From NCBI GenBank assembly GCA_015068735.1, contig SVJW01000003.1, forward strand, positions 9,735 to 73,734: a stretch of 64,000 nt of DNA, given 5' to 3'. The position numbers and the translations under genes are program-made. Below, one piece after another: positions 3,139 through 23,739 of the stretch. How positions within the stretch are numbered: the stretch's first letter is position 1; each line of letters opens with the position of its first letter. The notes under the pieces are model-generated. The model was not told the DNA's origin. It saw only the letters and a program-made list of their open reading frames with translations, and ran no database searches. Source of the stretch: Oscillospiraceae bacterium (GTDB taxonomy: Bacteria; Bacillota; Clostridia; UMGS1883).

Positions 3139-3863
3139 TCCATTTCCCCCAGCTCGTAAAGTATTGCCGAGCAAACTGCTATAGGTGCGGTTTCTGTTCT
3201 CAGAATTCGTTTTCCAAGAGTTACGCTGGTAATTCCGTTTTCCTTTGCAAGCTGTATTTCTTCACTGTCAAAGCCACCCTCAGGTCCTATCATTACGGAA
3301 ACGGATTTTGGTGTTTTCCCTGTAAGAGCTTTTTTTAGAGACATTTCCCTTTCTTCTTCATAAGGGATAAGGGCAAGATCAGCCTCCGCCGCCATTTTAA
3401 CAGCATCCTTAAAATTTACGGGAGAAAGGACCTCGGGGACAATGCCGCGCTTGCTCTGCTTTGCCGCTTCTCTGGCAATTTTACGAAGTCTGTCTACCTT
3501 GTTTTCCTTATCAAGCTTTGCCACGGCACGTTTTGTATCCACGGGAACAAGCCTTACTGCACCGATTTCCGTCAGCTTCTGAATGATTGTTTCAAGCTTG
3601 GGATTTTTCGGCACACCCTGAAAAACTGTCACTTTTACCTGAGGCTCTGTTTCTGCCACCCTTTTTGAAAGGATGTCTGCAATCACGGTTTTGTCTGAAA
3701 AGTCAGACAAAACCGCCTCGTAAAAGAAGCCCTCACCGTCACAAAGAGTTACCGCATCGCCCTTTTTCATACGAAGAACACGGCTGATATGTTGCGCTTC
3801 TTCACCTGTAATTGTAGCGGTATTATCATTTATATCGCTTTTATCTATGTAGAAATTAGCCAT
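3135..3863 (-). CDS. rsmE: 16S rRNA (uracil1498-N3)-methyltransferase RsmE
   Basis: 242 aa with an RsmE-like N-terminal PUA-like region and a C-terminal SPOUT region (IGPEGGF motif). It sits after prmA, as in the Bacillus dnaK operon. Confidence 0.85.
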   Translation of the reverse strand: MANFYIDKSDINDNTATITGEEAQHISRVLRMKKGDAVTLCDGEGFFYEAVLSDFSDKTVIADILSKRVAETEPQVKVTVFQGVPKNPKLETIIQKLTEIGAVRLVPVDTKRAVAKLDKENKVDRLRKIAREAAKQSKRGIVPEVLSPVNFKDAVKMAAEADLALIPYEEEREMSLKKALTGKTPKSVSVMIGPEGGFDSEEIQLAKENGITSVTLGKRILRTETAPIAVCSAILYELGEME

Positions 3864-4851: not shown

Positions 4852-5991
4852 TCACTTAAAGTAATCTTTCAGTTTGTCGGTAAATTTCTTTTTCTGATTA
4901 TAGTTTTTATCGTTACTTTCATCGGCAAACTGTTCAAGAATTTCTCTCTGCTTGGATGAAAGATTTTTCGGAATTTCCACGACTATACGAACATACTGGT
5001 CACCTCGTGAGCCGTTACGTATTGAGGGGATACCCTTTCCTTTCAGTCTGAACTTTGTTCCGTGCTGAGTTCCTTCGGGAATTCTCTGCATCACTTTGCC
5101 GTCAATGGTAGGAATTTCAATTTCGCAACCGAGTGTCGCCTGAACAAATGTAATGGGAACATCAATATAAACATTGTTCCCCTCACGGGTAAACACTTTG
5201 CTTTCTTTAACATATACAGTTATGAGAAGGTCTCCTGCAGGGCCACCGCGCATACCTGCCTCACCCTGACCGCGGAGAGAAACTGTCTGTCCATGGTCGA
5301 TACCTGCAGGAATATTTACCTCCAGTTCACGCTTCTTTCTGTTCTGACCGCTGCCGTTACAAACCGGACAAGGGTCGGAAATAGTCGTTCCCCGTCCTCC
5401 GCACTGGTTACAGGTAGTAGTTGAAGCGAACTGACCGAAGGGGGTATTCTGAACAGTTCTCATCTGACCTGTTCCTCCGCAACGGGCACACTTTACGGGA
5501 GATGTTCCCTTTTTCGCACCGCTGCCACCGCATTCGTCACAACTTTCGCCACGGATTATGGTTATCTTTTTCTTGCAACCGAACGCCGCTTCCTCAAAAG
5601 TAAGCTCTATTGCCTGCTGAATATCATTTCCACGGATAGGACCGCTTCTTCTGGAACTTCTTCCTCCGAAGCCACCACCGAAAAAGCTGTCAAAAATATC
5701 ACCCATATCAAATCCGCCGAAACCGCCAAATCCGCTTCCGCCGCCACCGAAGCCTGCATTGGGGTCTACCCCTGCATGACCGAACTGGTCGTAACGGCTA
5801 CGCTTTTCGCTGTCACTTAAAACATCGTATGCCTCTGCCGCTTCTTTGAATTTCTCAGCCGCGTCGGGATTATCCTTGTTAAGGTCGGGGTGATATTTCT
5901 TCGCAAGCTTTCTATATGCTTTTTTTATTTCATCGTCCGAAGCGCCTTTTTCTACGCCAAGGACTTCGTAATAGTCTCTCTTATCTGCCAT
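4852..5991 (-). CDS. dnaJ: Molecular chaperone DnaJ
   Basis: J-domain ([20 protein letters not shown]), a Gly/Phe-rich linker and four CxxCxGxG zinc-finger repeats. The start at MADKRDYY is preceded by an AGAGGTG SD. Confidence 0.95.
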
Positions 5992-6298: not shown

Positions 6299-8134
<1,836 letters not shown>

Positions 8135-8170
8135 TTACCTCCAAATATATCAAAAAATTTATAAACTGTG

Positions 8171-8683
8171 TCAATTTGCTACTTTCACCATACTGTGACG
8201 GATAACTCTGTCACCGATTTTGTAGCCTTTCTGGAATTCTTCAACGATTGTATTCTCCCCTGCTTCTTCATCGTCAACGTGCATTACTGCATTGTGAAGC
8301 TCTGGATTAAATTCTTCACCCACTGCCTTGATTTCTTCAACGCCTAAAGCGGCAAACACTTCGTCCATCTGCTTTTTCAGCATTACAACGCCCTCGTAAA
8401 AGCCGTCTTTATTTTCTGCCGAATCAATGGCACGCTGGAAATTGTCTATAACAGGCAGAAATTTTTCAACCACAACTGCCTTTGCTTCGGGATATATGCT
8501 TTCTTTCTCTTTAATAGTACGCTTGCGGTAGTTATCATATTCTGCAAGAGTACGCATATATTTTTCATTTACATCGTTATACTTTTTTTCAAACTCGTTT
8601 TCGGGAGTTTCTTCCGTAACCTCGGGGGCTACTTCTTCTTTAACTTCCTCTATAACTTCTTCTTTTTTCTTTTTAGTTGCCAT
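8171..8683 (-). CDS. grpE: Nucleotide exchange factor GrpE
   Basis: Acidic N-terminus and a GrpE C-terminal beta domain (GYKIGDRVIRHSMVKV). The start MATKKKK follows an AAAGGA SD and overlaps the hrcA 3' end by 11 nt. Confidence 0.9.
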   Translation of the reverse strand: MATKKKKEEVIEEVKEEVAPEVTEETPENEFEKKYNDVNEKYMRTLAEYDNYRKRTIKEKESIYPEAKAVVVEKFLPVIDNFQRAIDSAENKDGFYEGVVMLKKQMDEVFAALGVEEIKAVGEEFNPELHNAVMHVDDEEAGENTIVEEFQKGYKIGDRVIRHSMVKVAN

Positions 8684-9731
8684 CTGTATCATCCTTTCCG
8701 TAGATCATTCTTCCAAGTATCTCGCTAAGCTGACTGTTTATTAGCTCCAGAGAGGATACCACCCTTGCGTAATTCATACGCTTAGGGCCGATAATGCCTA
8801 TTTTTCCGTGAAGCTTACCGCCCACGTTATAATTTGCCACAACAAGACTTGTGTCGCGCATTTCCGGAACAGCATTTTCACTACCGATTTTTATGCTGAT
8901 ACTATTGCCTGCCTCTTCCGGAAGATTAAGCATCTGTGACACGTTTTCTTTCCTGTCAATAAAGGAGAAGAATTCTCTTGCTCTCTCAATATTTTCAAAT
9001 TCAGGGTTATTGAGGATGTTGGAAGCTCCTCCGATGTACACTCTTTTTTGTGTATTACCGAGACAATCCAGAACAAACTCTATTACTGTTTTCAGGAAAT
9101 CCCCGTAATTGCTCATTGCCTCGTAAATCAGCATAAGCCGTGCAGGAGTAAAATCGTCTGCCGAAAGCCCTGTAAGCTGTCCCGACAAAAATTCCGATAT
9201 AGAATCGATGATTTCGTAATCAATATCATCACTTACATTCATATGGCGGTTTCTTACCACGCCTGCATCAGTTACTACCACAATAAGCACACTACCCTGT
9301 TCAATAAGCATCATTTTAACGCTTCTTAAGCGGCTTTTCTGTGCGGTGGGAAGCTCCACAATTGCAGGATAATTTGTCGCCTTGGAAAGAATGTCGGAAA
9401 TTTCGGACACCACATTTTCAAGTTGGCTGTACTTTCTGTCCATACTGCTCTGCAAACTCGTAATTTCCTCCATGGTAAGGCTATAACGGTGCATCAGCGA
9501 GTCTACATAGAAACGATATCCCATTTCTGAGGGAATACGTCCTGCGGAGGTATGTGGCTTATCAAGGTAGCCCATTTCCTCCAGGTCTGCCATTTCGTTA
9601 CGGATTGTTGCAGCAGAAAGACCCAGGTCGTGATTTTTTGCAATGTTTCGTGAGCCTACAGGCTCAGCCGTCTGAATATAATCTTCAATAATGGCTTGAA
9701 GTATTGCTCTTTTTCTTTCGGAAAGCTCCAT
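8673..9731 (-). CDS. hrcA: Heat-inducible transcription repressor HrcA
   Basis: The N-terminal winged HTH (LSERKRAILQAIIEDYIQTAEPVGSR) is typical of HrcA. It is the first gene of the hrcA-grpE-dnaK-dnaJ operon and has a CIRCE element upstream. Confidence 0.95.
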   Translation of the reverse strand: MELSERKRAILQAIIEDYIQTAEPVGSRNIAKNHDLGLSAATIRNEMADLEEMGYLDKPHTSAGRIPSEMGYRFYVDSLMHRYSLTMEEITSLQSSMDRKYSQLENVVSEISDILSKATNYPAIVELPTAQKSRLRSVKMMLIEQGSVLIVVVTDAGVVRNRHMNVSDDIDYEIIDSISEFLSGQLTGLSADDFTPARLMLIYEAMSNYGDFLKTVIEFVLDCLGNTQKRVYIGGASNILNNPEFENIERAREFFSFIDRKENVSQMLNLPEEAGNSISIKIGSENAVPEMRDTSLVVANYNVGGKLHGKIGIIGPKRMNYARVVSSLELINSQLSEILGRMIYGKDDTDGN

Positions 9732-9752
9732 ATGCTCACCTCTTTTCGTTTG

Positions 9753-9779
9753 TTAGCACTCGCTTTCTTCGAGTGCTAA
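9753..9779 (-). promoter_or_regulatory. CIRCE operator (HrcA binding site)
   Basis: Exact consensus TTAGCACTC-N9-GAGTGCTAA, 21 nt upstream of the hrcA ATG. Confidence 0.95.
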
Positions 9780-9783
9780 CAAT

Positions 9784-9812
9784 AATGTACCACTATCTAT
9801 GCCGAAAGTCAA
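9784..9812 (-). promoter_or_regulatory. SigA-type promoter of the hrcA operon
   Basis: On the minus strand: TTGACT, 17 nt, TACATT. CIRCE begins 4 nt downstream of the -10 box. Confidence 0.6.
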
Positions 9813-9850
9813 GTATTATTTACTATTATTTCTAATTTATTCATATTTAA

Positions 9851-9886
9851 ACCAAAAAAGGAACTCTCCCATATGGAGAGTTCCTT
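9851..9886 (-). terminator. Rho-independent terminator downstream of thrS
   Basis: 12-bp stem AAGGAACTCTCC/GGAGAGTTCCTT, followed on the minus strand by TTTTTTGG. Confidence 0.75.
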
Positions 9887-9906
9887 CCTTCATTTTGCAT
9901 TATGTA

Positions 9907-9941
9907 TGAGACACATTGGGGACAGTCCCCAATGTGTCTCA
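9907..9941. repeat. REP-like 35-nt palindrome, copy 1
   Basis: TGAGACACATTGGGGACAGTCCCCAATGTGTCTCA, identical to the copies at 12027-12061 and 12878-12912. Confidence 0.9.
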
Positions 9942-9971
9942 AAACTCCTGATATTACAAAAAAACCTATCC

Positions 9972-11726
9972 TTATTTAATTACCTTATTACTAACTTCCT
10001 CAGTAATCTTTGCAATAAATTCTTCAATAGACATACTGCCGATGTCACCGTCACGACGGTCACGGACAGAAACAGTGTTGTTCTCGATATCCTTATCACC
10101 AACAAGAATCATATAAGGAACTTTTTCAAGCTGAGCCTCACGAATCTTGTAACCGATTTTTTCGCTTCTGTCGTCGATTTCGATACGGATGATACCGCTT
10201 TCTTCAAGCTTTCTCTTAACTTCATAGATATAGTCAAGGTGACGGTCAGCAATGGGAAGAAGTTTAACCTGAACAGGTGCAAGCCATACGGGGAACGCGC
10301 CTGCGTACTTTTCAATGAGAAGTGCAAGAGTTCTCTCGTAGCAACCGATGGATGTTCTGTGGATGATATAGGGGTTCTTCTTCACGCCATCCTTATCCAC
10401 ATATTCCATACCGAACTGCTGAGCAAGCATCTGGTCAATCTGAATTGTGCTAAGAGTATCTTCTTTACCGAATACGTTCTTGATCTGAATATCAAGCTTA
10501 GGTCCGTAGAATGCAGCTTCGCCAATACCAACCTTGTAGGGGATCTCCAGATTGTTAAGGATTTTCTCCATCATACCCTGAGCTTCATCCCACTGTTCGG
10601 GAGTACCGATATACTTGTCGCGGTCGTTAGGATCCCACTGCGAGAAACGGTAGGAAACATCCTCGTAAAGACCGAGAGTTTTAAGCATATAGATTGCAAG
10701 CTCCAGGCTGCCTCTGAATTCGTCCTCCAACTGCTCGGGAGTACACATAAGGTGGCCCTCAGAAATAGTAAACTGTCTTACGCGGATAAGCCCGTGCATT
10801 TCGCCGGAAGCCTCGTTACGGAAAAGAGTAGAGGTTTCGTTAAGACGCATGGGAAGGTCACGGTAACTTCTGCCACGATTAAGGAATGCCTGATACTGGA
10901 AAGGACAAGTCATGGGACGAAGTGCAAATACTTCCTTATCCTTTTCTTCATCGCCAAGAACGAACATACCGTCCTGATAATGGTCCCAATGTCCGGAAAT
11001 CTTGTAAAGGTCGCTCTTCGCCATAAGGGGAGTCTTGGTAAGCATCCAACCCCTCTTCTGCTCTTCATCCTCAACAAATCTCTGAAGAAGCTGAATAATT
11101 CTTGCGCCCTTGGGAAGAAGAATGGGAAGTCCCTGACCGATTACATCACTTGTTGTGAAAAGTTCAAGTTCACGACCGAGCTTGTTATGGTCACGTTTCT
11201 TAGCTTCTTCTCTCTGCTGGAGGTCTGCTTCAAGCTCATCCTTTGTAAGGAAAGCAGTTGCATAAATACGCTGAAGCATCTTGTTCTTTTCGTCGCCTCT
11301 CCAATAAGCGCCTGTTGCACTGAGGAGCTTGTACGCCTTAACCTTGCTTGTGTAGTTCACGTGAGGACCTGCACAAAGGTCTGTAAATTCGCCCTGTTTG
11401 TAGAAAGAAATCGTTTCTCCCTCGGGAAGGTCATTGATAAGCTCAACCTTATAAGGCTCGTCCTTCATAAGTTCGAGAGCTTCTTCTCTGGGAAGTTCAA
11501 AACGCTCAATCTTGAGGTTTTCTTTTGCAATTTTTTTCATTTCCGCTTCGATTTTCTCCAAATCTTCGGGAGTGAAGGGATGGGGAGTGTCGAAGTCATA
11601 GTAAAAGCCGTTTTCGATAGCAGGACCTATCGCAAGCTTTACTTCGGGGAAAAGTCTTTTTACAGCCTGCGCCATAACGTGTGACGCAGAGTGTCTTAAG
11701 GTTTGCAGTTCGTTCATTTCTGCCAT
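9972..11726 (-). CDS. thrS: Threonine--tRNA ligase (short form, no N-terminal TGS domain)
   Basis: The protein begins MAEMNELQTLRHSASHVMAQAV, i.e. directly at the HxxxH editing/SAD region, and then shows class II core motifs. A T-box leader lies upstream. Confidence 0.92.
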   Translation of the reverse strand: MAEMNELQTLRHSASHVMAQAVKRLFPEVKLAIGPAIENGFYYDFDTPHPFTPEDLEKIEAEMKKIAKENLKIERFELPREEALELMKDEPYKVELINDLPEGETISFYKQGEFTDLCAGPHVNYTSKVKAYKLLSATGAYWRGDEKNKMLQRIYATAFLTKDELEADLQQREEAKKRDHNKLGRELELFTTSDVIGQGLPILLPKGARIIQLLQRFVEDEEQKRGWMLTKTPLMAKSDLYKISGHWDHYQDGMFVLGDEEKDKEVFALRPMTCPFQYQAFLNRGRSYRDLPMRLNETSTLFRNEASGEMHGLIRVRQFTISEGHLMCTPEQLEDEFRGSLELAIYMLKTLGLYEDVSYRFSQWDPNDRDKYIGTPEQWDEAQGMMEKILNNLEIPYKVGIGEAAFYGPKLDIQIKNVFGKEDTLSTIQIDQMLAQQFGMEYVDKDGVKKNPYIIHRTSIGCYERTLALLIEKYAGAFPVWLAPVQVKLLPIADRHLDYIYEVKRKLEESGIIRIEIDDRSEKIGYKIREAQLEKVPYMILVGDKDIENNTVSVRDRRDGDIGSMSIEEFIAKITEEVSNKVIK

Positions 11727-11741
11727 TATAATCATCCTTTC

Positions 11742-11981
11742 AAAAAAATAAGCACCCCTAATACAACGTATTAAGGGTGCGTTAGTTCAAAACCAAGCAC
11801 GGTTCCACCTTAAATTTCACTCAATTTCCCATTAACGCAGGCTCACGACAGGGAATACTAAGTTTCCTCCCTGCAGCTCCGGAGTGGTGTTCGCCAAGGC
11901 TCTGTATAGGGTGCTTCCAGCTAATAACACCCCTCTCTCTTATACTCGGCAGAGGTTACTGTCTCCATCATTGCTTTTACG
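11742..11981 (-). promoter_or_regulatory. T-box leader (tRNA-Thr responsive) with terminator/antiterminator
   Basis: On the minus strand: an AGAGAG box, the specifier-loop context GAACACCACTCC (ACC followed by A), the T-box sequence AAATTTAAGGTGGAACCGTGC, then the terminator GCACCCTTAATAC..GTATTAGGGGTGC plus a T-run. Confidence 0.8.
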
Positions 11982-11987
11982 AAAGTT

Positions 11988-12016
11988 ATTATAACACACT
12001 ATTTTTTCTCAGTCAA
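11988..12016 (-). promoter_or_regulatory. SigA-type promoter for the thrS leader
   Basis: On the minus strand: TTGACT, 17 nt, TATAAT. Confidence 0.65.
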
Positions 12017-12026
12017 GAAGAAAATA

Positions 12027-12061
12027 TGAGACACATTGGGGACAGTCCCCAATGTGTCTCA
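12027..12061. repeat. REP-like 35-nt palindrome, copy 2 (its last 3 nt supply the stop codon of the RAYT gene)
   Basis: Identical 35-mer. It lies 10 nt upstream of the thrS -35 box. Confidence 0.9.
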
Positions 12062-12823
12062 TATTATACGATATAGAGAGGAACGTGGGATTCCCGTTAA
12101 TCTTGAAAGTGTCTTCTTTTCTATATTACATTCCGCTATTATTTTCTGCAAGATTGCATTCATTTCATTTTTAGGCAAGTTTCTTATTTCGTGAGGTTTT
12201 ATGCCGCCTGTAACTTTTATTATCTTAACTTTTGCAGCAATGTCTTTCAACCTTAAACTATCTTCAAAATCTTTTTCATCGCAATCAGAAGCAGTAAACT
12301 TCACAAACTGTTTAATTGCCATTTTTCTATTTTCATCAAGCATATCCAAAAGGAAATCAACGTCTGTTAACCCTTTGATGTCGCCTACATAATCGGAATA
12401 GCTACTATATTTATAGCTCTGTATATTTTCAGATAACTGAGCTTTTACCGGATTCTGATGAATGTATCGTGATAACGTCAGGAAATAGCTATCATCTTCT
12501 ACGGGAATGCTTTTGTATCGGTTTGAAAAAAGGTGACCTGTTCGCTCGTATTTGAAATTATACCAACCTGCATAATGGGAGAGTATTCTTTTCATAATGC
12601 CGGATATATCACCCTTTTGCGCTTCTCTGACAAACAGATGCACGTGATTAGGCATCATACAGTAAGCGTAAATTTGCAAATCCGTATCATTTTTGACAAG
12701 GGAAAGTATCTCAATAAACTTCACATAATCCTTATCATCTGAAAAAATACATTGTTTATTGAGACCACGAAACATAATATGATACATTCCTGTTTCGCTT
12801 AAAATTCTTGCTTGTCTTGCCAT
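12059..12823 (-). CDS. REP-associated tyrosine transposase (RAYT; IS200/IS605-like Y1 HUH transposase) with a C-terminal HTH-like extension
   Basis: HUH motif in MMPNHVHLFV and the catalytic Tyr context RYIHQNPVKA. The N-terminus ARILSETGMYHIMFRGLN is typical of RAYT. The start MARQAR follows a GGTGGTGA SD. The gene is flanked on both sides by the identical palindrome. Confidence 0.8.
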   Translation of the reverse strand: MARQARILSETGMYHIMFRGLNKQCIFSDDKDYVKFIEILSLVKNDTDLQIYAYCMMPNHVHLFVREAQKGDISGIMKRILSHYAGWYNFKYERTGHLFSNRYKSIPVEDDSYFLTLSRYIHQNPVKAQLSENIQSYKYSSYSDYVGDIKGLTDVDFLLDMLDENRKMAIKQFVKFTASDCDEKDFEDSLRLKDIAAKVKIIKVTGGIKPHEIRNLPKNEMNAILQKIIAECNIEKKTLSRLTGIPRSSLYRII

Positions 12824-12877
12824 ATTATCACCACCAATTTGATAGTAACATATATTTTCAAAAAAGTCAAGATAAAA

Positions 12878-12912
12878 TGAGACACATTGGGGACAGTCCC
12901 CAATGTGTCTCA
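12878..12912. repeat. REP-like 35-nt palindrome, copy 3
   Basis: Identical 35-mer, 55 nt upstream of the RAYT start. Confidence 0.9.
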
Positions 12913-12952
12913 TTTGGTGTTAGATATAAAGAAAACAAAAAAGAACGTACAC

Positions 12953-12987
12953 AAAAAAGAACAGCCCCCGGAGGGACTGTCCTTTTT
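12953..12987. terminator. Bidirectional hairpin terminator downstream of the SLH protein gene
   Basis: Imperfect stem GAACAGCCC..GGGACTGTCC, flanked by an A-run and a T-run. Confidence 0.55.
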
Positions 12988-13020
12988 CTAATTGACTATT
13001 AATTTTATAAGAGTCAAGAA

Positions 13021-15783
13021 TTATACTTCAGGAACTTCAATCTCAGCGTCTCTGTAAACGATAACTTCAACCTGATCCTTATCGAAGTATCTTACGAATA
13101 CTGTGTAGTCATACTTGCCATCGTATCTGGAGAAGAGGCTTGTGCCCTTAGACTTCTTAGATACTTCAGGAGTAGAACCTTCGCTGAAGTCTACAAGAGT
13201 ATATCTTGCAGAGTTCTTCATTGTAATAACAGCACCGTCTTCTTCAGTATCACCAACAACGTCTGCGTCTGCAAGATAGAACTTAGAAGCTGTGGGAGCC
13301 TCAGTTTCATCAAGAGCACCGAAGAAGTAGTATTCGTCTTCCTTACAATCGCCATCAGCGATTACAAGACCATCTCTTGTAGCAAGAAGCTCAAGGTCTG
13401 TGATGATGCCATCAGCGTTAGCTGCACCAACGAGAAGGATGTTACCCTTTACGAAGAGGGCAGCTGCTTCGCCATCAAGGTCTTCATCAAGGATTGTGTA
13501 AGAAGCCTTCTTACCATCCTGGAAACCATTGATTACGTATGCATCTTCATCATCGATATCCTTTGTCTTATAACCTGTAACGATGAATGCTGCGCCTTCC
13601 TTAGAAACAGCTGTTGTAAGACCTGTACCAACTACAAGACCTGCAACATCGTTGTTGTCATAATCGTAAGCTGCGAGAACGAAATCTTCGCCTTCGCCGT
13701 CTACGAAGAAGTCAGCTACCTTACCAACCTTGATGTCGTCAGATTCAACAACATCTTCTACGTCATCAATAGCGATAACTACTGTAGAATCATTGAATAC
13801 GAGGTTACCGTATTCCATGTTTTCTTCATCATATTCTCTGCCTGTAATATCTTCATCTTCAGCATCGATAGCAACAAGCTTTGTTACCTTACCGTTCTTG
13901 ATTGTGATGTCAAATACAAGAGAGTTGATGTCAGCAAGCTCTGCTGCTGCCCAACCGTTAGATTCGCCATTAAGCATATCTTCGAGAGCTGCAAGAACAT
14001 CATCATCTGTTGTAGCTTCACCAAGCTTAGCCTTGTCGCCAAGTTCGTATGTTGCAGCTGTACCGTCAGCAAGAACAACTTCTACCATGTTCTTTCTGTC
14101 TTCTGTACCAGCAGCGATTACGATACCGTAGTTAACATCAGATGTAGCTTCGTCATGAGCGATCTGGCCATCAACGTTAATGAAGAAGATACCTTCTTTA
14201 CCGCTGAGGGCGGAGATGTCTTCATAAGCAGCAAATGAAGAAATTTCGTATTCTTCGCCACCGATTTCTACACAGTCATCATCGTAAGAATCAACCTTAC
14301 CTGTAACTGTCTTAGAAGATACATAGTAAACAACGAAGTTGTCACCAGCTTCAACCTTAGAAACTGTGTCGTTAGCAGCGATGTCTGCAGCTGTAGCTAC
14401 AGCGCCATCCTTGATAACAACGCTAAGGTAGTCTTCATCTTCTGTATCGATATCTTCGATATCGCCAACGTAGCAATCGAACATTACTACACCGTCATCT
14501 GTTGTAACTTCTTCAACAACAGCTTCGCTGTCATATACAGTTACAAGGATAACATCAATCTTGCTGTCAGCATCGTTGCTGATAAGTGTAACGATACCGT
14601 TACCAACATATTCCTTAAGATCTGCTGTTGTAGCGATAGCTGCTTCGCCATCAATTACAAAGTTGTTAACAACTGTTACAGCTACATCACCGTCTTCATC
14701 TGTTTCAAGATCAAGAGACTGAATCTTTGTAGCGCCTACTTCTCTGTAGCCGATAACTGCTTCATCGTCACCGTACTTTTCGTCTTCGTCAACGAGCTGA
14801 GTTGCGCTAAGTGTTGTAACCTTGTTTGCGCCCTGCTTTTCAGCAATAGCGTAGATCATGTAGTTACCTGTTTCGTCGTCTTCTTCTTCACCTACGTAAG
14901 CAACAACCTTCCTACCTGCAAAGTTGTTTACATCAGCTACAAGGCTTGCATCGTAAGTAAGCTGTTCAAGAGCTTTATCTTCGAGCTTACCATCAACGTA
15001 TTCGAAGTATTCAGCACCTTCCATGAATGTGATTTCTGCATCAGAATCTTCTGTGTAACCGTTTTCAGCATATTCAGCGAAAGGTGTTCCAGCTACGATA
15101 CCTTCAACCTTTCTGATACCAAGGTACTGAGAAAGGATTGTTTCGTCGAGCTTACCGTAAGCATCGTCTTCACCGGAAGGAGTCCAGGACTTCTGATCCA
15201 TAAGACGAACTTCAAGAGAATTGTAAACGAGAACTGCGATAGTTCCACGAGCTGCAGGAGCACCTACAACGCCGTTAGAATTCTTGGAGATACCTTCACG
15301 AGAAGCAACTGCGAGGTAACCTGTAGACCAGCCACCCTTAGACTGAGCGTCAAGCTCGTAACCAAGAGCAACAACGATCATCTTGATTGCCTGCTCATAA
15401 GTAACCTGATCTTCGGGACCGAAGTTACCATTGCCGTAACCGTTAACGATCTGGAGAGACTGTGCTACATTAACGTAGCCAGAAGCCCAATGGCTAGCGG
15501 GAACGTCGTTGAATATTGTGGAACCCATGCTTGCTTTAGCCTGATCTTCATAACCGAGTGTACGGCAGATGATAGCAGCCATCTGAGCACGAGTTACAGT
15601 GTCGTTGGGCTTGAATGTACCATCTTCAAAACCTTCGAAAATACCAAGGTTAGAAAGGATACCAACAGCCTCAGCAACTTTTGTTCCTTCTGCTACGTCT
15701 GTATAAGCAAAAGCACTGAAGCCCATGCTAAGAACCATAGCAAACGCAAGAACAACTGCGAGTGTCTTCTTGAGATTTTTCAT
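13021..15783 (-). CDS. S-layer-like cell-surface protein with an N-terminal signal peptide and three SLH domains
   Basis: Signal peptide MKNLKKTLAVVLAFAMVLSMGFSAFA. SLH repeats are present (DVAEGTKVAEAVGILSNLGIFEGFEDGTFKPNDTVTRAQMAAII and following). The long remainder is acidic and Asp/Glu/Val/Gly-rich. It has a strong consensus promoter and SD. Confidence 0.85.
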   Translation of the reverse strand: MKNLKKTLAVVLAFAMVLSMGFSAFAYTDVAEGTKVAEAVGILSNLGIFEGFEDGTFKPNDTVTRAQMAAIICRTLGYEDQAKASMGSTIFNDVPASHWASGYVNVAQSLQIVNGYGNGNFGPEDQVTYEQAIKMIVVALGYELDAQSKGGWSTGYLAVASREGISKNSNGVVGAPAARGTIAVLVYNSLEVRLMDQKSWTPSGEDDAYGKLDETILSQYLGIRKVEGIVAGTPFAEYAENGYTEDSDAEITFMEGAEYFEYVDGKLEDKALEQLTYDASLVADVNNFAGRKVVAYVGEEEDDETGNYMIYAIAEKQGANKVTTLSATQLVDEDEKYGDDEAVIGYREVGATKIQSLDLETDEDGDVAVTVVNNFVIDGEAAIATTADLKEYVGNGIVTLISNDADSKIDVILVTVYDSEAVVEEVTTDDGVVMFDCYVGDIEDIDTEDEDYLSVVIKDGAVATAADIAANDTVSKVEAGDNFVVYYVSSKTVTGKVDSYDDDCVEIGGEEYEISSFAAYEDISALSGKEGIFFINVDGQIAHDEATSDVNYGIVIAAGTEDRKNMVEVVLADGTAATYELGDKAKLGEATTDDDVLAALEDMLNGESNGWAAAELADINSLVFDITIKNGKVTKLVAIDAEDEDITGREYDEENMEYGNLVFNDSTVVIAIDDVEDVVESDDIKVGKVADFFVDGEGEDFVLAAYDYDNNDVAGLVVGTGLTTAVSKEGAAFIVTGYKTKDIDDEDAYVINGFQDGKKASYTILDEDLDGEAAALFVKGNILLVGAANADGIITDLELLATRDGLVIADGDCKEDEYYFFGALDETEAPTASKFYLADADVVGDTEEDGAVITMKNSARYTLVDFSEGSTPEVSKKSKGTSLFSRYDGKYDYTVFVRYFDKDQVEVIVYRDAEIEVPEV

Positions 15784-23662: not shown

Positions 23663-23739
23663 GTGCTTGTAGCTCAGTTGGATAGAGTATTTGGCTACGA
23701 ACCAAAGGGTCAGGGGTTCGAATCCCTTCAAGCACGCCA
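23663..23739 (+). tRNA. tRNA-Arg (anticodon ACG), CCA encoded
   Basis: Manual cloverleaf: acceptor GTGCTTG/CAAGCAC, D-arm GCTC..GAGT, anticodon stem TTTGG/CCAAA with loop CTACGAA, T-arm AGGGG-TTCGAAT-CCCTT, discriminator G, then CCA. Confidence 0.92.

Follow-up and report, generated by a model that had tools for sequence, protein, structure and literature searches.

A probable TIRYT-type transposase and its family of hairpin repeats in an uncultured lineage of gut Clostridia

The window, a 64-kb stretch of contig SVJW01000003.1 from an uncultured Oscillospiraceae bacterium, contains a minus-strand open reading frame (ORF) of 254 amino acids at 12059..12823 that lies between two copies of a palindromic repeat. 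We think it likely that this ORF encodes a Y1 HUH enzyme of the TnpA-REP class, which is domesticated, present in one copy, and passed on vertically, and that the palindromes are its cognate repeat family. Among the described systems, the best fit is to the TIRYTs, which are genes with terminal inverted repeats that resemble those for REP-associated tyrosine transposases (RAYTs), and the enzyme probably belongs to their subclass 2.1. An earlier note on this DNA had described the locus as a REPtron, that is, as a RAYT with its flanking repetitive extragenic palindromes (REPs). Part of this stood, as the enzyme is RAYT-class and its flanking hairpin repeats are also found elsewhere. The classical label did not, as the repeats lack the GTAG tag and the TIRYT/TIRtron description fits better.

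The 35-nt repeat, TGAGACACATTGGGGACAGTCCCCAATGTGTCTCA, is present in three exact copies in the window, at 9907-9941 (copy 1), 12027-12061 (copy 2), and 12878-12912 (copy 3). The earlier note had reported all three; across 100 shuffles, the expected count was zero. There is no fourth copy in the 64 kb, even if 2-3 mismatches to the core are allowed. Each copy has two 17-nt arms around a single centre base, which is A on the plus strand in all three copies. The palindromy continues into the flanks of copy 2 (21 nt, to 12023-12065) and of copy 3 (20 nt, perfect to 12875-12915), while copy 1 has no such extension. Overall, the repeat is a perfect palindrome of 35-43 bp, with the invariant apex GGGGAC-N-GTCCCC. 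As single-stranded DNA, the window copies fold with energies of -18 to -22 kcal/mol (z = -7 to -10 relative to shuffled sequences). In a perfect palindrome such as this, polarity comes from the centre base alone, and we assign no strand to the copies; the centre base has the same orientation in all three window copies and opposite orientations in the flanking repeats of two related loci, L004 and L008 (loci from other genomes have L numbers). The centre of the repeat, GGGGACAG, matches the GGGGWSAS motif of the TIRYT repeats, and the palindrome is in effect that motif in two overlapping copies. No relevant publication came up when the literature was searched for the repeat sequence.

Copies 2 and 3 bracket the ORF. 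Its TGA stop codon is the last three bases of copy 2 (12059-12061), as the earlier note had pointed out, and upstream of the gene the repeat centre lies 72 nt from the start codon. The protein begins with MARQARIL, and all 43 aligned homologues begin with MARQAR or MSRQ, so a longer ORF that would start at an ATG inside copy 3 is not supported. The catalytic core (residues 1-130 or so) is followed by a helical linker and by a C-terminal helix-turn-helix (HTH) of the Cro/C1 type at about residues 225-253. The HUH and tyrosine motifs that the earlier note had picked out are there: the histidines H60 and H62 are in NHVHLFV, and the catalytic Tyr120 is in RYIHQNP. The latter has the class-2 signature Y---NP, as Y120-IHQ-NP. 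When 44 relatives were aligned, conservation was seen at the HUH histidines, at Tyr120 in Y---NP, in a YSSY stretch, and in a C-terminal LERxTGISRxT HTH. Across those relatives, the HUH and Tyr motifs are invariant or nearly so, with N124 conserved in at least 90% and P125 invariant. The ratio of nonsynonymous to synonymous substitution rates (dN/dS) relative to an 87% identical orthologue is just 0.05, so the gene is maintained by selection.

The earlier note had also suspected an HTH-like tail. This tail is real and conserved: profile matches include HTH_26 in 32 of the 44 relatives and HTH_3 in 19 of the 44. (Bac_DnaA_C, HTH_23, and HTH_28 were not among the profile matches to the tail.) An AlphaFold (AF2) model of the whole protein has a mean pLDDT of 86, with helices at residues 218-251.

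Profiles, alignment, and the structural model support a RAYT-class enzyme rather than an IS200-class one. The Y1_Tnp domain (PF01797), which the earlier note had proposed as a check, scores 65 bits against a cut-off of 23. Among the NCBIfam models, REP_Tyr_transpos (NF047646) is the best by far, at 70.4 bits, while transpos_IS200 scores 20 bits against a cut-off of 55. When we compared the AlphaFold model to the Protein Data Bank with Foldseek, the top match was 4er8_A, which is TnpA-REP from E. coli in complex with a REP hairpin (E = 6.7e-7, template modelling score of 0.74 on the target, root-mean-square deviation of 4.0 Å). The next matches with E ≤ 0.001 were all transposases of the IS200/IS605 family (from ISDra2, IS200, and IS608), with target scores of 0.46-0.67. 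4er8 was also the first match in both a sequence search and a profile search of solved structures. An ordinary IS200 TnpA, the outcome that the earlier note had named as counting against its reading, is therefore not what these comparisons point to.

The gene's neighbourhood also argues for a resident enzyme. The exact protein is found on 22 metagenome contigs, and the 6 that we displayed share one neighbourhood. Three same-species contigs were compared to the window: two match it at 100% identity over 4.5 kb, and the third does so at 99.94% over 3.4 kb. In relatives with proteins at 87, 81, 64, 63, and 62% identity, the gene order is the same: a gene with an S-layer homology (SLH) domain and its terminator, a repeat, a TTGAC promoter, the transposase-like gene, and another repeat. 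This is followed by thrS with its T-box (in some genomes), hrcA with a CIRCE operator, grpE, and dnaK. In other words, the order SLH - repeat - gene - repeat - (thrS) - hrcA-grpE-dnaK is kept in L004 and L006-L009, across 62-87% protein identity. At 62-100% identity, six genomes retain this locus. ThrS and DnaK are 90-96% identical across these related genomes. This conserved locus implies a single-copy and vertically inherited gene, as is typical of RAYTs, rather than an insertion sequence (IS). One metagenome-assembled genome (MAG), JAZQAB01, is an exception, as it has the gene in another context along with a second paralogue that is cut by a contig end. As a side observation, the two paralogues of JAZQAB01 (L005, L102, L033, L076, L093, and L116) are divergent, with 69% and 77% identity to the window protein, and this MAG has at least two repeat subfamilies (TTTCTCAC... 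and TGCGACAC...) as well as one exact copy of the window's 35-mer. For carriage of the system by phage, we found just one weak and partial match.

These results bear on the idea that the locus is an autonomous insertion sequence of the IS200/IS605 type, with the flanking hairpins as its left and right ends. Such an element would also have a Y1_Tnp domain and hairpins on both sides of the gene, and many of the homologues are on contigs of about 1 kb, as is often seen for multi-copy elements. But the short contigs can be explained because assemblies break at repeats, and the genomic context is always the same in this clade. Furthermore, both supposed ends are one palindrome, which is also found by itself without the gene; there is no tnpB; and both the low IS200 score and the closer fit, in fold and profile, to TnpA-REP speak against it, as does the class-2 Y---NP (PMC6006769). 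We find this explanation hardly credible.

In each of the six closest relatives (62-87% identity), the gene has GGGGAC-N-GTCCCC palindromes next to it, and their outer arms are specific to each genome: TGAGACACATT in the window, TGGCACACTTT in the genome of L009, TAGTACACTTT in L008, TTTCTCACTTT in L005, and TTGAACAAAAA in L007. Among 109 distinct variants, stem positions 12-17, which our search pattern left free, are paired 63-95% of the time, as compared to 27-45% in shuffled sequences. The covarying pairs use all four Watson-Crick types, and the pairing fades past position 18. In the 87% identical relative, the copies at the corresponding places differ from each other and from the consensus of that genome, whereas the window copies are identical.

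The repeats are not confined to the gene's flanks. A degenerate scan of species-representative genomes found at least 119 stretches with the core pattern. The counts per MAG are lower bounds and range from at least 9 to at least 32: for example, at least 32 in CASFXG01 (Coriobacteriaceae), at least 17 in RUG14853 (Lachnospiraceae; CADCPJ01), at least 15 in JAUNJR01 (Coriobacteriales), and about 10 in several Clostridia MAGs. Two other Clostridia MAGs contain the exact 35-mer, in contexts that are unrelated. Of the 50 copies in low-GC genomes that could be assessed, 46 are extragenic; 11 of these are between convergent genes, 34 between tandem genes, and just 1 between divergent genes, while the background ratio is 38:244:37. 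Dispersed repeats are biased to the 3' ends of genes. Many of the low-GC copies lie between an A run and a T run.

More distant relatives of the enzyme (35-50% identity) are numerous, with at least 585 in species-representative genomes. Most are from Bacillota, and a few are from MAGs that are labelled Atribacteria or Prevotella. Enough flanking sequence was available for 67 loci, and in 57 of them the upstream and downstream flanks have an inverted word in common. The majority of these words include GGGGACGG and are located 50-150 nt upstream of the start codon; true hairpins are present in just a few of these distant relatives.

The 3' bias and the A and T runs raise the question of whether the palindromes are simply intrinsic terminators of the ordinary bidirectional kind, or insulators, which are alike by chance and have nothing to do with the gene. 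Copy 2 does score as a terminator, with a 20-pair stem at -21.6 kcal/mol; because TTCTTCTT comes after it on the minus strand, it looks like an intrinsic terminator, and it may also serve as the terminator of the transposase-like gene. At L009, a repeat with a T run occupies the position that the thrS terminator has in the window. On the other hand, chance does not account for identity at 35 of 35 positions at three sites, and copy 1 lacks a T tract and has a separate terminator after it. In the six closest relatives, the gene is flanked by the same core, a GGGGAC word recurs in the inverted flanks of 57 of the 67 distant loci, and the apex is invariant even though the arms are genome-specific. 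So we regard unrelated terminators as very improbable.

How many copies does the source organism have? Two scans of metagenome contigs for the repeat gave 0 and 1 matches and were uninformative, so the copy number was estimated from Logan contigs by their word depth. For four faecal metagenomes that contain the locus, the unitig of the 35-36-nt core has a depth of 61-95, as compared to about 7-8 for single-copy flanks. This corresponds to roughly 8-12 exact copies per genome-equivalent, if all of them belong to this organism. More than 10 different flanks join the repeat, at depths of 3-9, and one of these flanks is a contig of about 1-1.3 kb that has two copies of the repeat, 571 nt apart. 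The earlier note had named a palindrome confined to the three sites in the window as another result that would count against it. The depth and the additional flanks indicate otherwise, with the extra copies being assigned to this genome by depth. The note had also argued that the system is active, or recently so, because the three copies are identical. Their identity does not by itself show this: the locus and its repeats are conserved down to 62% identity, and no insertion polymorphism was seen among the same-species contigs.

The positions of the repeats relative to promoters suggest another possibility, which is that the protein is mainly a DNA-binding regulator. The HTH would bind the duplex palindrome as an operator at the -35 boxes of its own gene and of thrS, and the nuclease would play no part in spreading the repeats. 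The gene has a candidate promoter at 12842..12870 on the minus strand (TTGACT-17-TACTAT with a TG, by match to the consensus only), and copy 3 ends 7 nt before its -35 box. A TTGAC hexamer is present at the equivalent position in all six related loci, and in all six the upstream repeat ends 4-12 nt before the -35. The thrS promoter in the window, L007, and L008 likewise has a repeat that ends this close to its TTGAC. The conserved HTH and the two-fold symmetry of the site fit this view as well. However, autoregulation at the gene's own terminal repeat would also be compatible with the explanation that we prefer. Against a pure regulator, the HUH motif and the catalytic tyrosine are invariant in 44 relatives, and the gene is under strong purifying selection. 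Nor are the dispersed copies beside TTGAC hexamers (1 of 44, versus about 5% as background), so that a role as operators across the genome becomes less likely; most of them are at the 3' ends of genes. Finally, at least 10 copies with genome-specific, covarying arms require some process of copying. We judge a purely regulatory protein to be unlikely.

We return to the reading of the system as a TnpA-REP-class enzyme with its own repeats, and ask which of the described systems it resembles. Di Nocera et al. (2013; PMC3733652) described TIRtrons, in which the RAYT-like TIRYTs have terminal inverted repeats, many with GGGGWSAS placed at a constant distance from the gene; self-complementarity is seen in some of these repeats, and others or the same ones belong to dispersed families of moderate abundance. 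TIRYTs were equated with subclass 2.1 of TnpA-Y1, which are long proteins with a C-terminal HTH, by Quentin et al. (2018; PMC6006769), who also identified Y---NP as the class 2 tyrosine signature. They found no REP-like secondary structures beside the subclass 2.1 genes. Group 1 RAYTs are also found in Clostridia, with flanking 16-mers that occur about 12 times (Bertels et al. 2017; PMC5581495). The system in the window is like a TIRtron in that its enzyme is longer than classical RAYTs and has a C-terminal HTH, with Y---NP and conserved serines after the tyrosine helix (YSSY). Also, its inverted GGGGWSAS repeats lie at a fixed distance from the gene; they are self-complementary, moderately abundant, and dispersed; and the gene's copy number is low. 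Unlike subclass 2.1 as published, there is a perfect 17-21-bp hairpin beside the gene, and the tail matches the Cro/C1-type families HTH_26 and HTH_3 rather than Bac_DnaA_C, HTH_23, or HTH_28. Unlike the published TIRtrons, the host is from an uncultured lineage of gut Clostridia.

The resemblance to the classical REPtrons of E. coli and Pseudomonas (RAYT; 4ER8) is also considerable: a Y1 HUH gene that is single-copy and vertically inherited sits between extragenic palindromes of its own; these repeats are genome-specific, extragenic, and dispersed with a bias to 3' ends, and they track the enzyme; TnpA-REP is the closest solved structure; and one relative (L007) has doublets. The differences from those REPtrons are that the palindromes are perfect instead of imperfect stems, that there are about 10 copies instead of 100-600, that the protein has an extra C-terminal region of 110 residues with the HTH, and that the flanking copies have the same centre-base orientation. 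The HUH/Tyr fold is shared with TnpA from IS200/IS605 elements (such as IS608 and ISDra2), and the recognition of hairpins in single-stranded DNA is part of the chemistry of that family. Unlike those elements, the gene is neither multi-copy nor mobile and does not have distinct left and right ends. Overall, the system is best filed as a TIRtron-type system whose terminal repeat appears to have turned into a hairpin REP.

Several results weigh against this interpretation. The GTAG or CGTC tag at the head of classical REPs, or its complement, is absent from the 35-mer and its variants. The REP_Tyr_transpos score of 70.4 bits misses the cut-off of 80 bits for a RAYT equivalog. When the C-terminal domain was modelled alone (pLDDT of 78) and compared to the Protein Data Bank, it matched small HTH domains, none of them significantly (best E = 0.68). 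The centre base (A or T) shows no bias relative to GC skew (Fisher exact test, P = 0.43 for low-GC loci and 1.0 for high-GC loci), so there is no sign of the replication-strand bias of IS608-type elements. No insertion polymorphism was seen among the same-species contigs, and the one comparison of a filled site (L009) to an empty site (in the window species) showed a 52-58-nt indel with replaced flanks instead of a clean insertion. The copy number is about 10, not hundreds, so the classical level of over 100 REPs is not reached, and similar depth in metagenomes is what suggests that the extra copies belong to this genome. A search of RNA runs turned up none with the locus, so the promoter and terminator roles there are putative, at the level of consensus matches. 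And in the Coriobacteriia, which have many of the repeats, a search of about 0.5 Mb from these genomes with a hidden Markov model did not find a cognate Y1 gene.

By analogy to the chemistry of TnpA-REP and of IS608-type enzymes, the system might work as follows. When replication or transcription exposes single strands, the palindrome would extrude as a hairpin; the HUH/Tyr120 domain would bind the conserved apex of this hairpin, and would nick and rejoin the adjacent DNA. Nicking and rejoining could seed new copies and could also keep the copies within a genome alike; we propose that homogenisation of this kind is why the three window copies are identical while those of the 87% relative have diverged. 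The HTH tail probably aids in binding the repeat. It may also autoregulate the gene via the upstream repeat, which is plausible because that repeat ends so close to the gene's own -35 in all six related loci. Copy 2 may have been co-opted as the terminator of the gene and would insulate the thrS promoter. Cleavage of the hairpin, the activity of the enzyme, and the role of the tail are all inferred.

Some of the repeats and homologues in other genomes have unusual features. L007 has repeat doublets, spaced 36 nt apart and with opposite centre bases, at 5880-5945, 6790-6840, and 9590-9660. The arms of these doublets are self-complementary only in part, and they are reminiscent of REPINs or BIMEs. 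Doublets are also found in loci from JAUNJR01 (e.g., L016 at 3400-3460), and across L007 and JAUNJR01, the spacing is 33-36 nt. In Coriobacteriia (L018-L131, from Coriobacteriaceae CASFXG01, Enorma CAJLVH01, and Collinsella), a repeat with a 21-nt core in common with that of the window, TGACATTGGGGAC-N-GTCCCCAATGTCA, occurs at least 9-32 times per MAG. The Coriobacteriia copies are asymmetric, as TGACA(T/A) always comes next on the strand with A at the centre.

Collinsella aerofaciens NZ_OY725717 (L213, 19977-20789) encodes a full-length homologue, with 26% identity, that is annotated as a transposase. HVR replaces HUH and serine replaces the catalytic tyrosine, and no palindromes lie within 40 kb. 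This relative is apparently catalytically inactive. The record is a 900-kb "plasmid" that also carries argS, rho, and suf genes. A 39%-identity relative, from an Oscillospiraceae MAG (L173), has an identical 65-nt perfect palindrome on each side (at about 2617-2681 and 3471-3535), which holds two units of GGGGACAGACCCC. Metabacillus niabensis and a Bacillus MAG (L054, 5760-6020, and L101, 5878-6138) share a non-coding segment of about 250 nt, at 86% identity, with the palindrome AAAAACACTTTGGGGACAGTCCCCAAAGTGTTTTT and a second one, GGGGACTGTCCCC, 130 nt away.

Within the window, copies 2 and 1 bracket thrS (threonyl-tRNA synthetase; 9972..11735, minus strand), which is variably present at this place in relatives. 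Its promoter is at 11988..12016 on the minus strand (TTGACT-17-TATAAT, with 11 of 12 positions matching the consensus). The leader at 11770..11980 (minus strand), which lies outside the element, matches the T-box family of Rfam (RF00230) at 93.7 bits, which confirms it as the thrS leader. The intrinsic terminator of thrS, a hairpin with a T run, is at 9858..9886 on the minus strand. The earlier note had placed copy 1 between the thrS stop (at 9972) and this terminator, and copy 2 at 10 nt from the -35 hexamer of thrS; both placements are correct. The position of copy 1 in the thrS-hrcA spacer varies among related genomes.

In the window, L007, L008, and L009, the thrS cassette (the promoter, T-box, and gene; 9972-12026 in the window) is found between hrcA and the gene-downstream repeat; L009 has an additional transglutaminase-like gene after the repeat. 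L004 (6757-6940; from JAFTOF01) does not have the cassette there, and the repeat passes directly into the spacer upstream of hrcA. In L006 (6760-8575; from JAZPYX01), an SLH-like ORF takes the place of the cassette, and the thrS terminator is kept. Every one of these rearrangements begins at the gene-downstream repeat. Loss of thrS by simple recombination between the flanking repeats is a poor fit, as the right boundary in L004 is at the end of the thrS terminator rather than at copy 1.

Directly downstream of copy 1 is hrcA-grpE-dnaK, an ordinary heat-shock operon. It is preceded by a CIRCE operator, TTAGCACTC-N9-GAGTGCTAA, and a TTGACT-17-TACATT promoter (9753-9779 and 9784-9812). On the other side of the transposase-like gene, the terminator of the SLH-domain gene (at about 12958-12984) contains GGGACTGTCC, which is the 10-mer at the repeat's centre; this is kept in all related loci. 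There is a tRNA gene at 23663-23736. Because GC skew is negative over all 64 kb, and the genes that we examined at 6299-15783 are all on the minus strand, the plus strand of the window is the lagging strand throughout.

The arrangement that we describe is already known from other bacteria, so this is a well-documented further example and not a new kind of system. A bolder interpretation, which we consider doubtful, is that the passage from terminal inverted repeat to REP can be seen in this clade: two overlapping GGGGWSAS motifs of a TIRYT would have fused into a perfect palindrome that the HTH reads as duplex, and the resulting repeat family would have spread over gut Clostridia, Lachnospiraceae, and Coriobacteriia. 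If so, then either strand could extrude the fused palindrome; the 21-nt core would be nearly identical even in Coriobacteriia, which are in a different phylum; and some genomes would have at least 32 copies with no cognate gene seen. Also, one element would be a mobile repeat, a terminator, and an operator of the enzyme's own promoter, and these sites would be where segments bounded by the repeats (the thrS cassette, for instance) are reshuffled.

RAYTs with REPs, and TIRYTs with their terminal inverted repeats, have been studied almost entirely in Proteobacteria, and here there is a clean and well-conserved example from uncultured gut Clostridia. It ties an HTH-bearing, TIRYT-like enzyme to true hairpin repeats and so bridges two described groups. 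For these bacteria, the palindromes matter in practical ways: they break short-read assemblies of gut MAGs, they are placed at terminators and promoters of essential genes (thrS, with the hrcA-dnaK operon adjoining), and they mark the spot where gene order differs between close relatives. A 254-amino-acid protein and a 35-nt hairpin would also make a compact Gram-positive model of an enzyme and its substrate, for the role of the HTH tail and for how GGGGWSAS is recognised.

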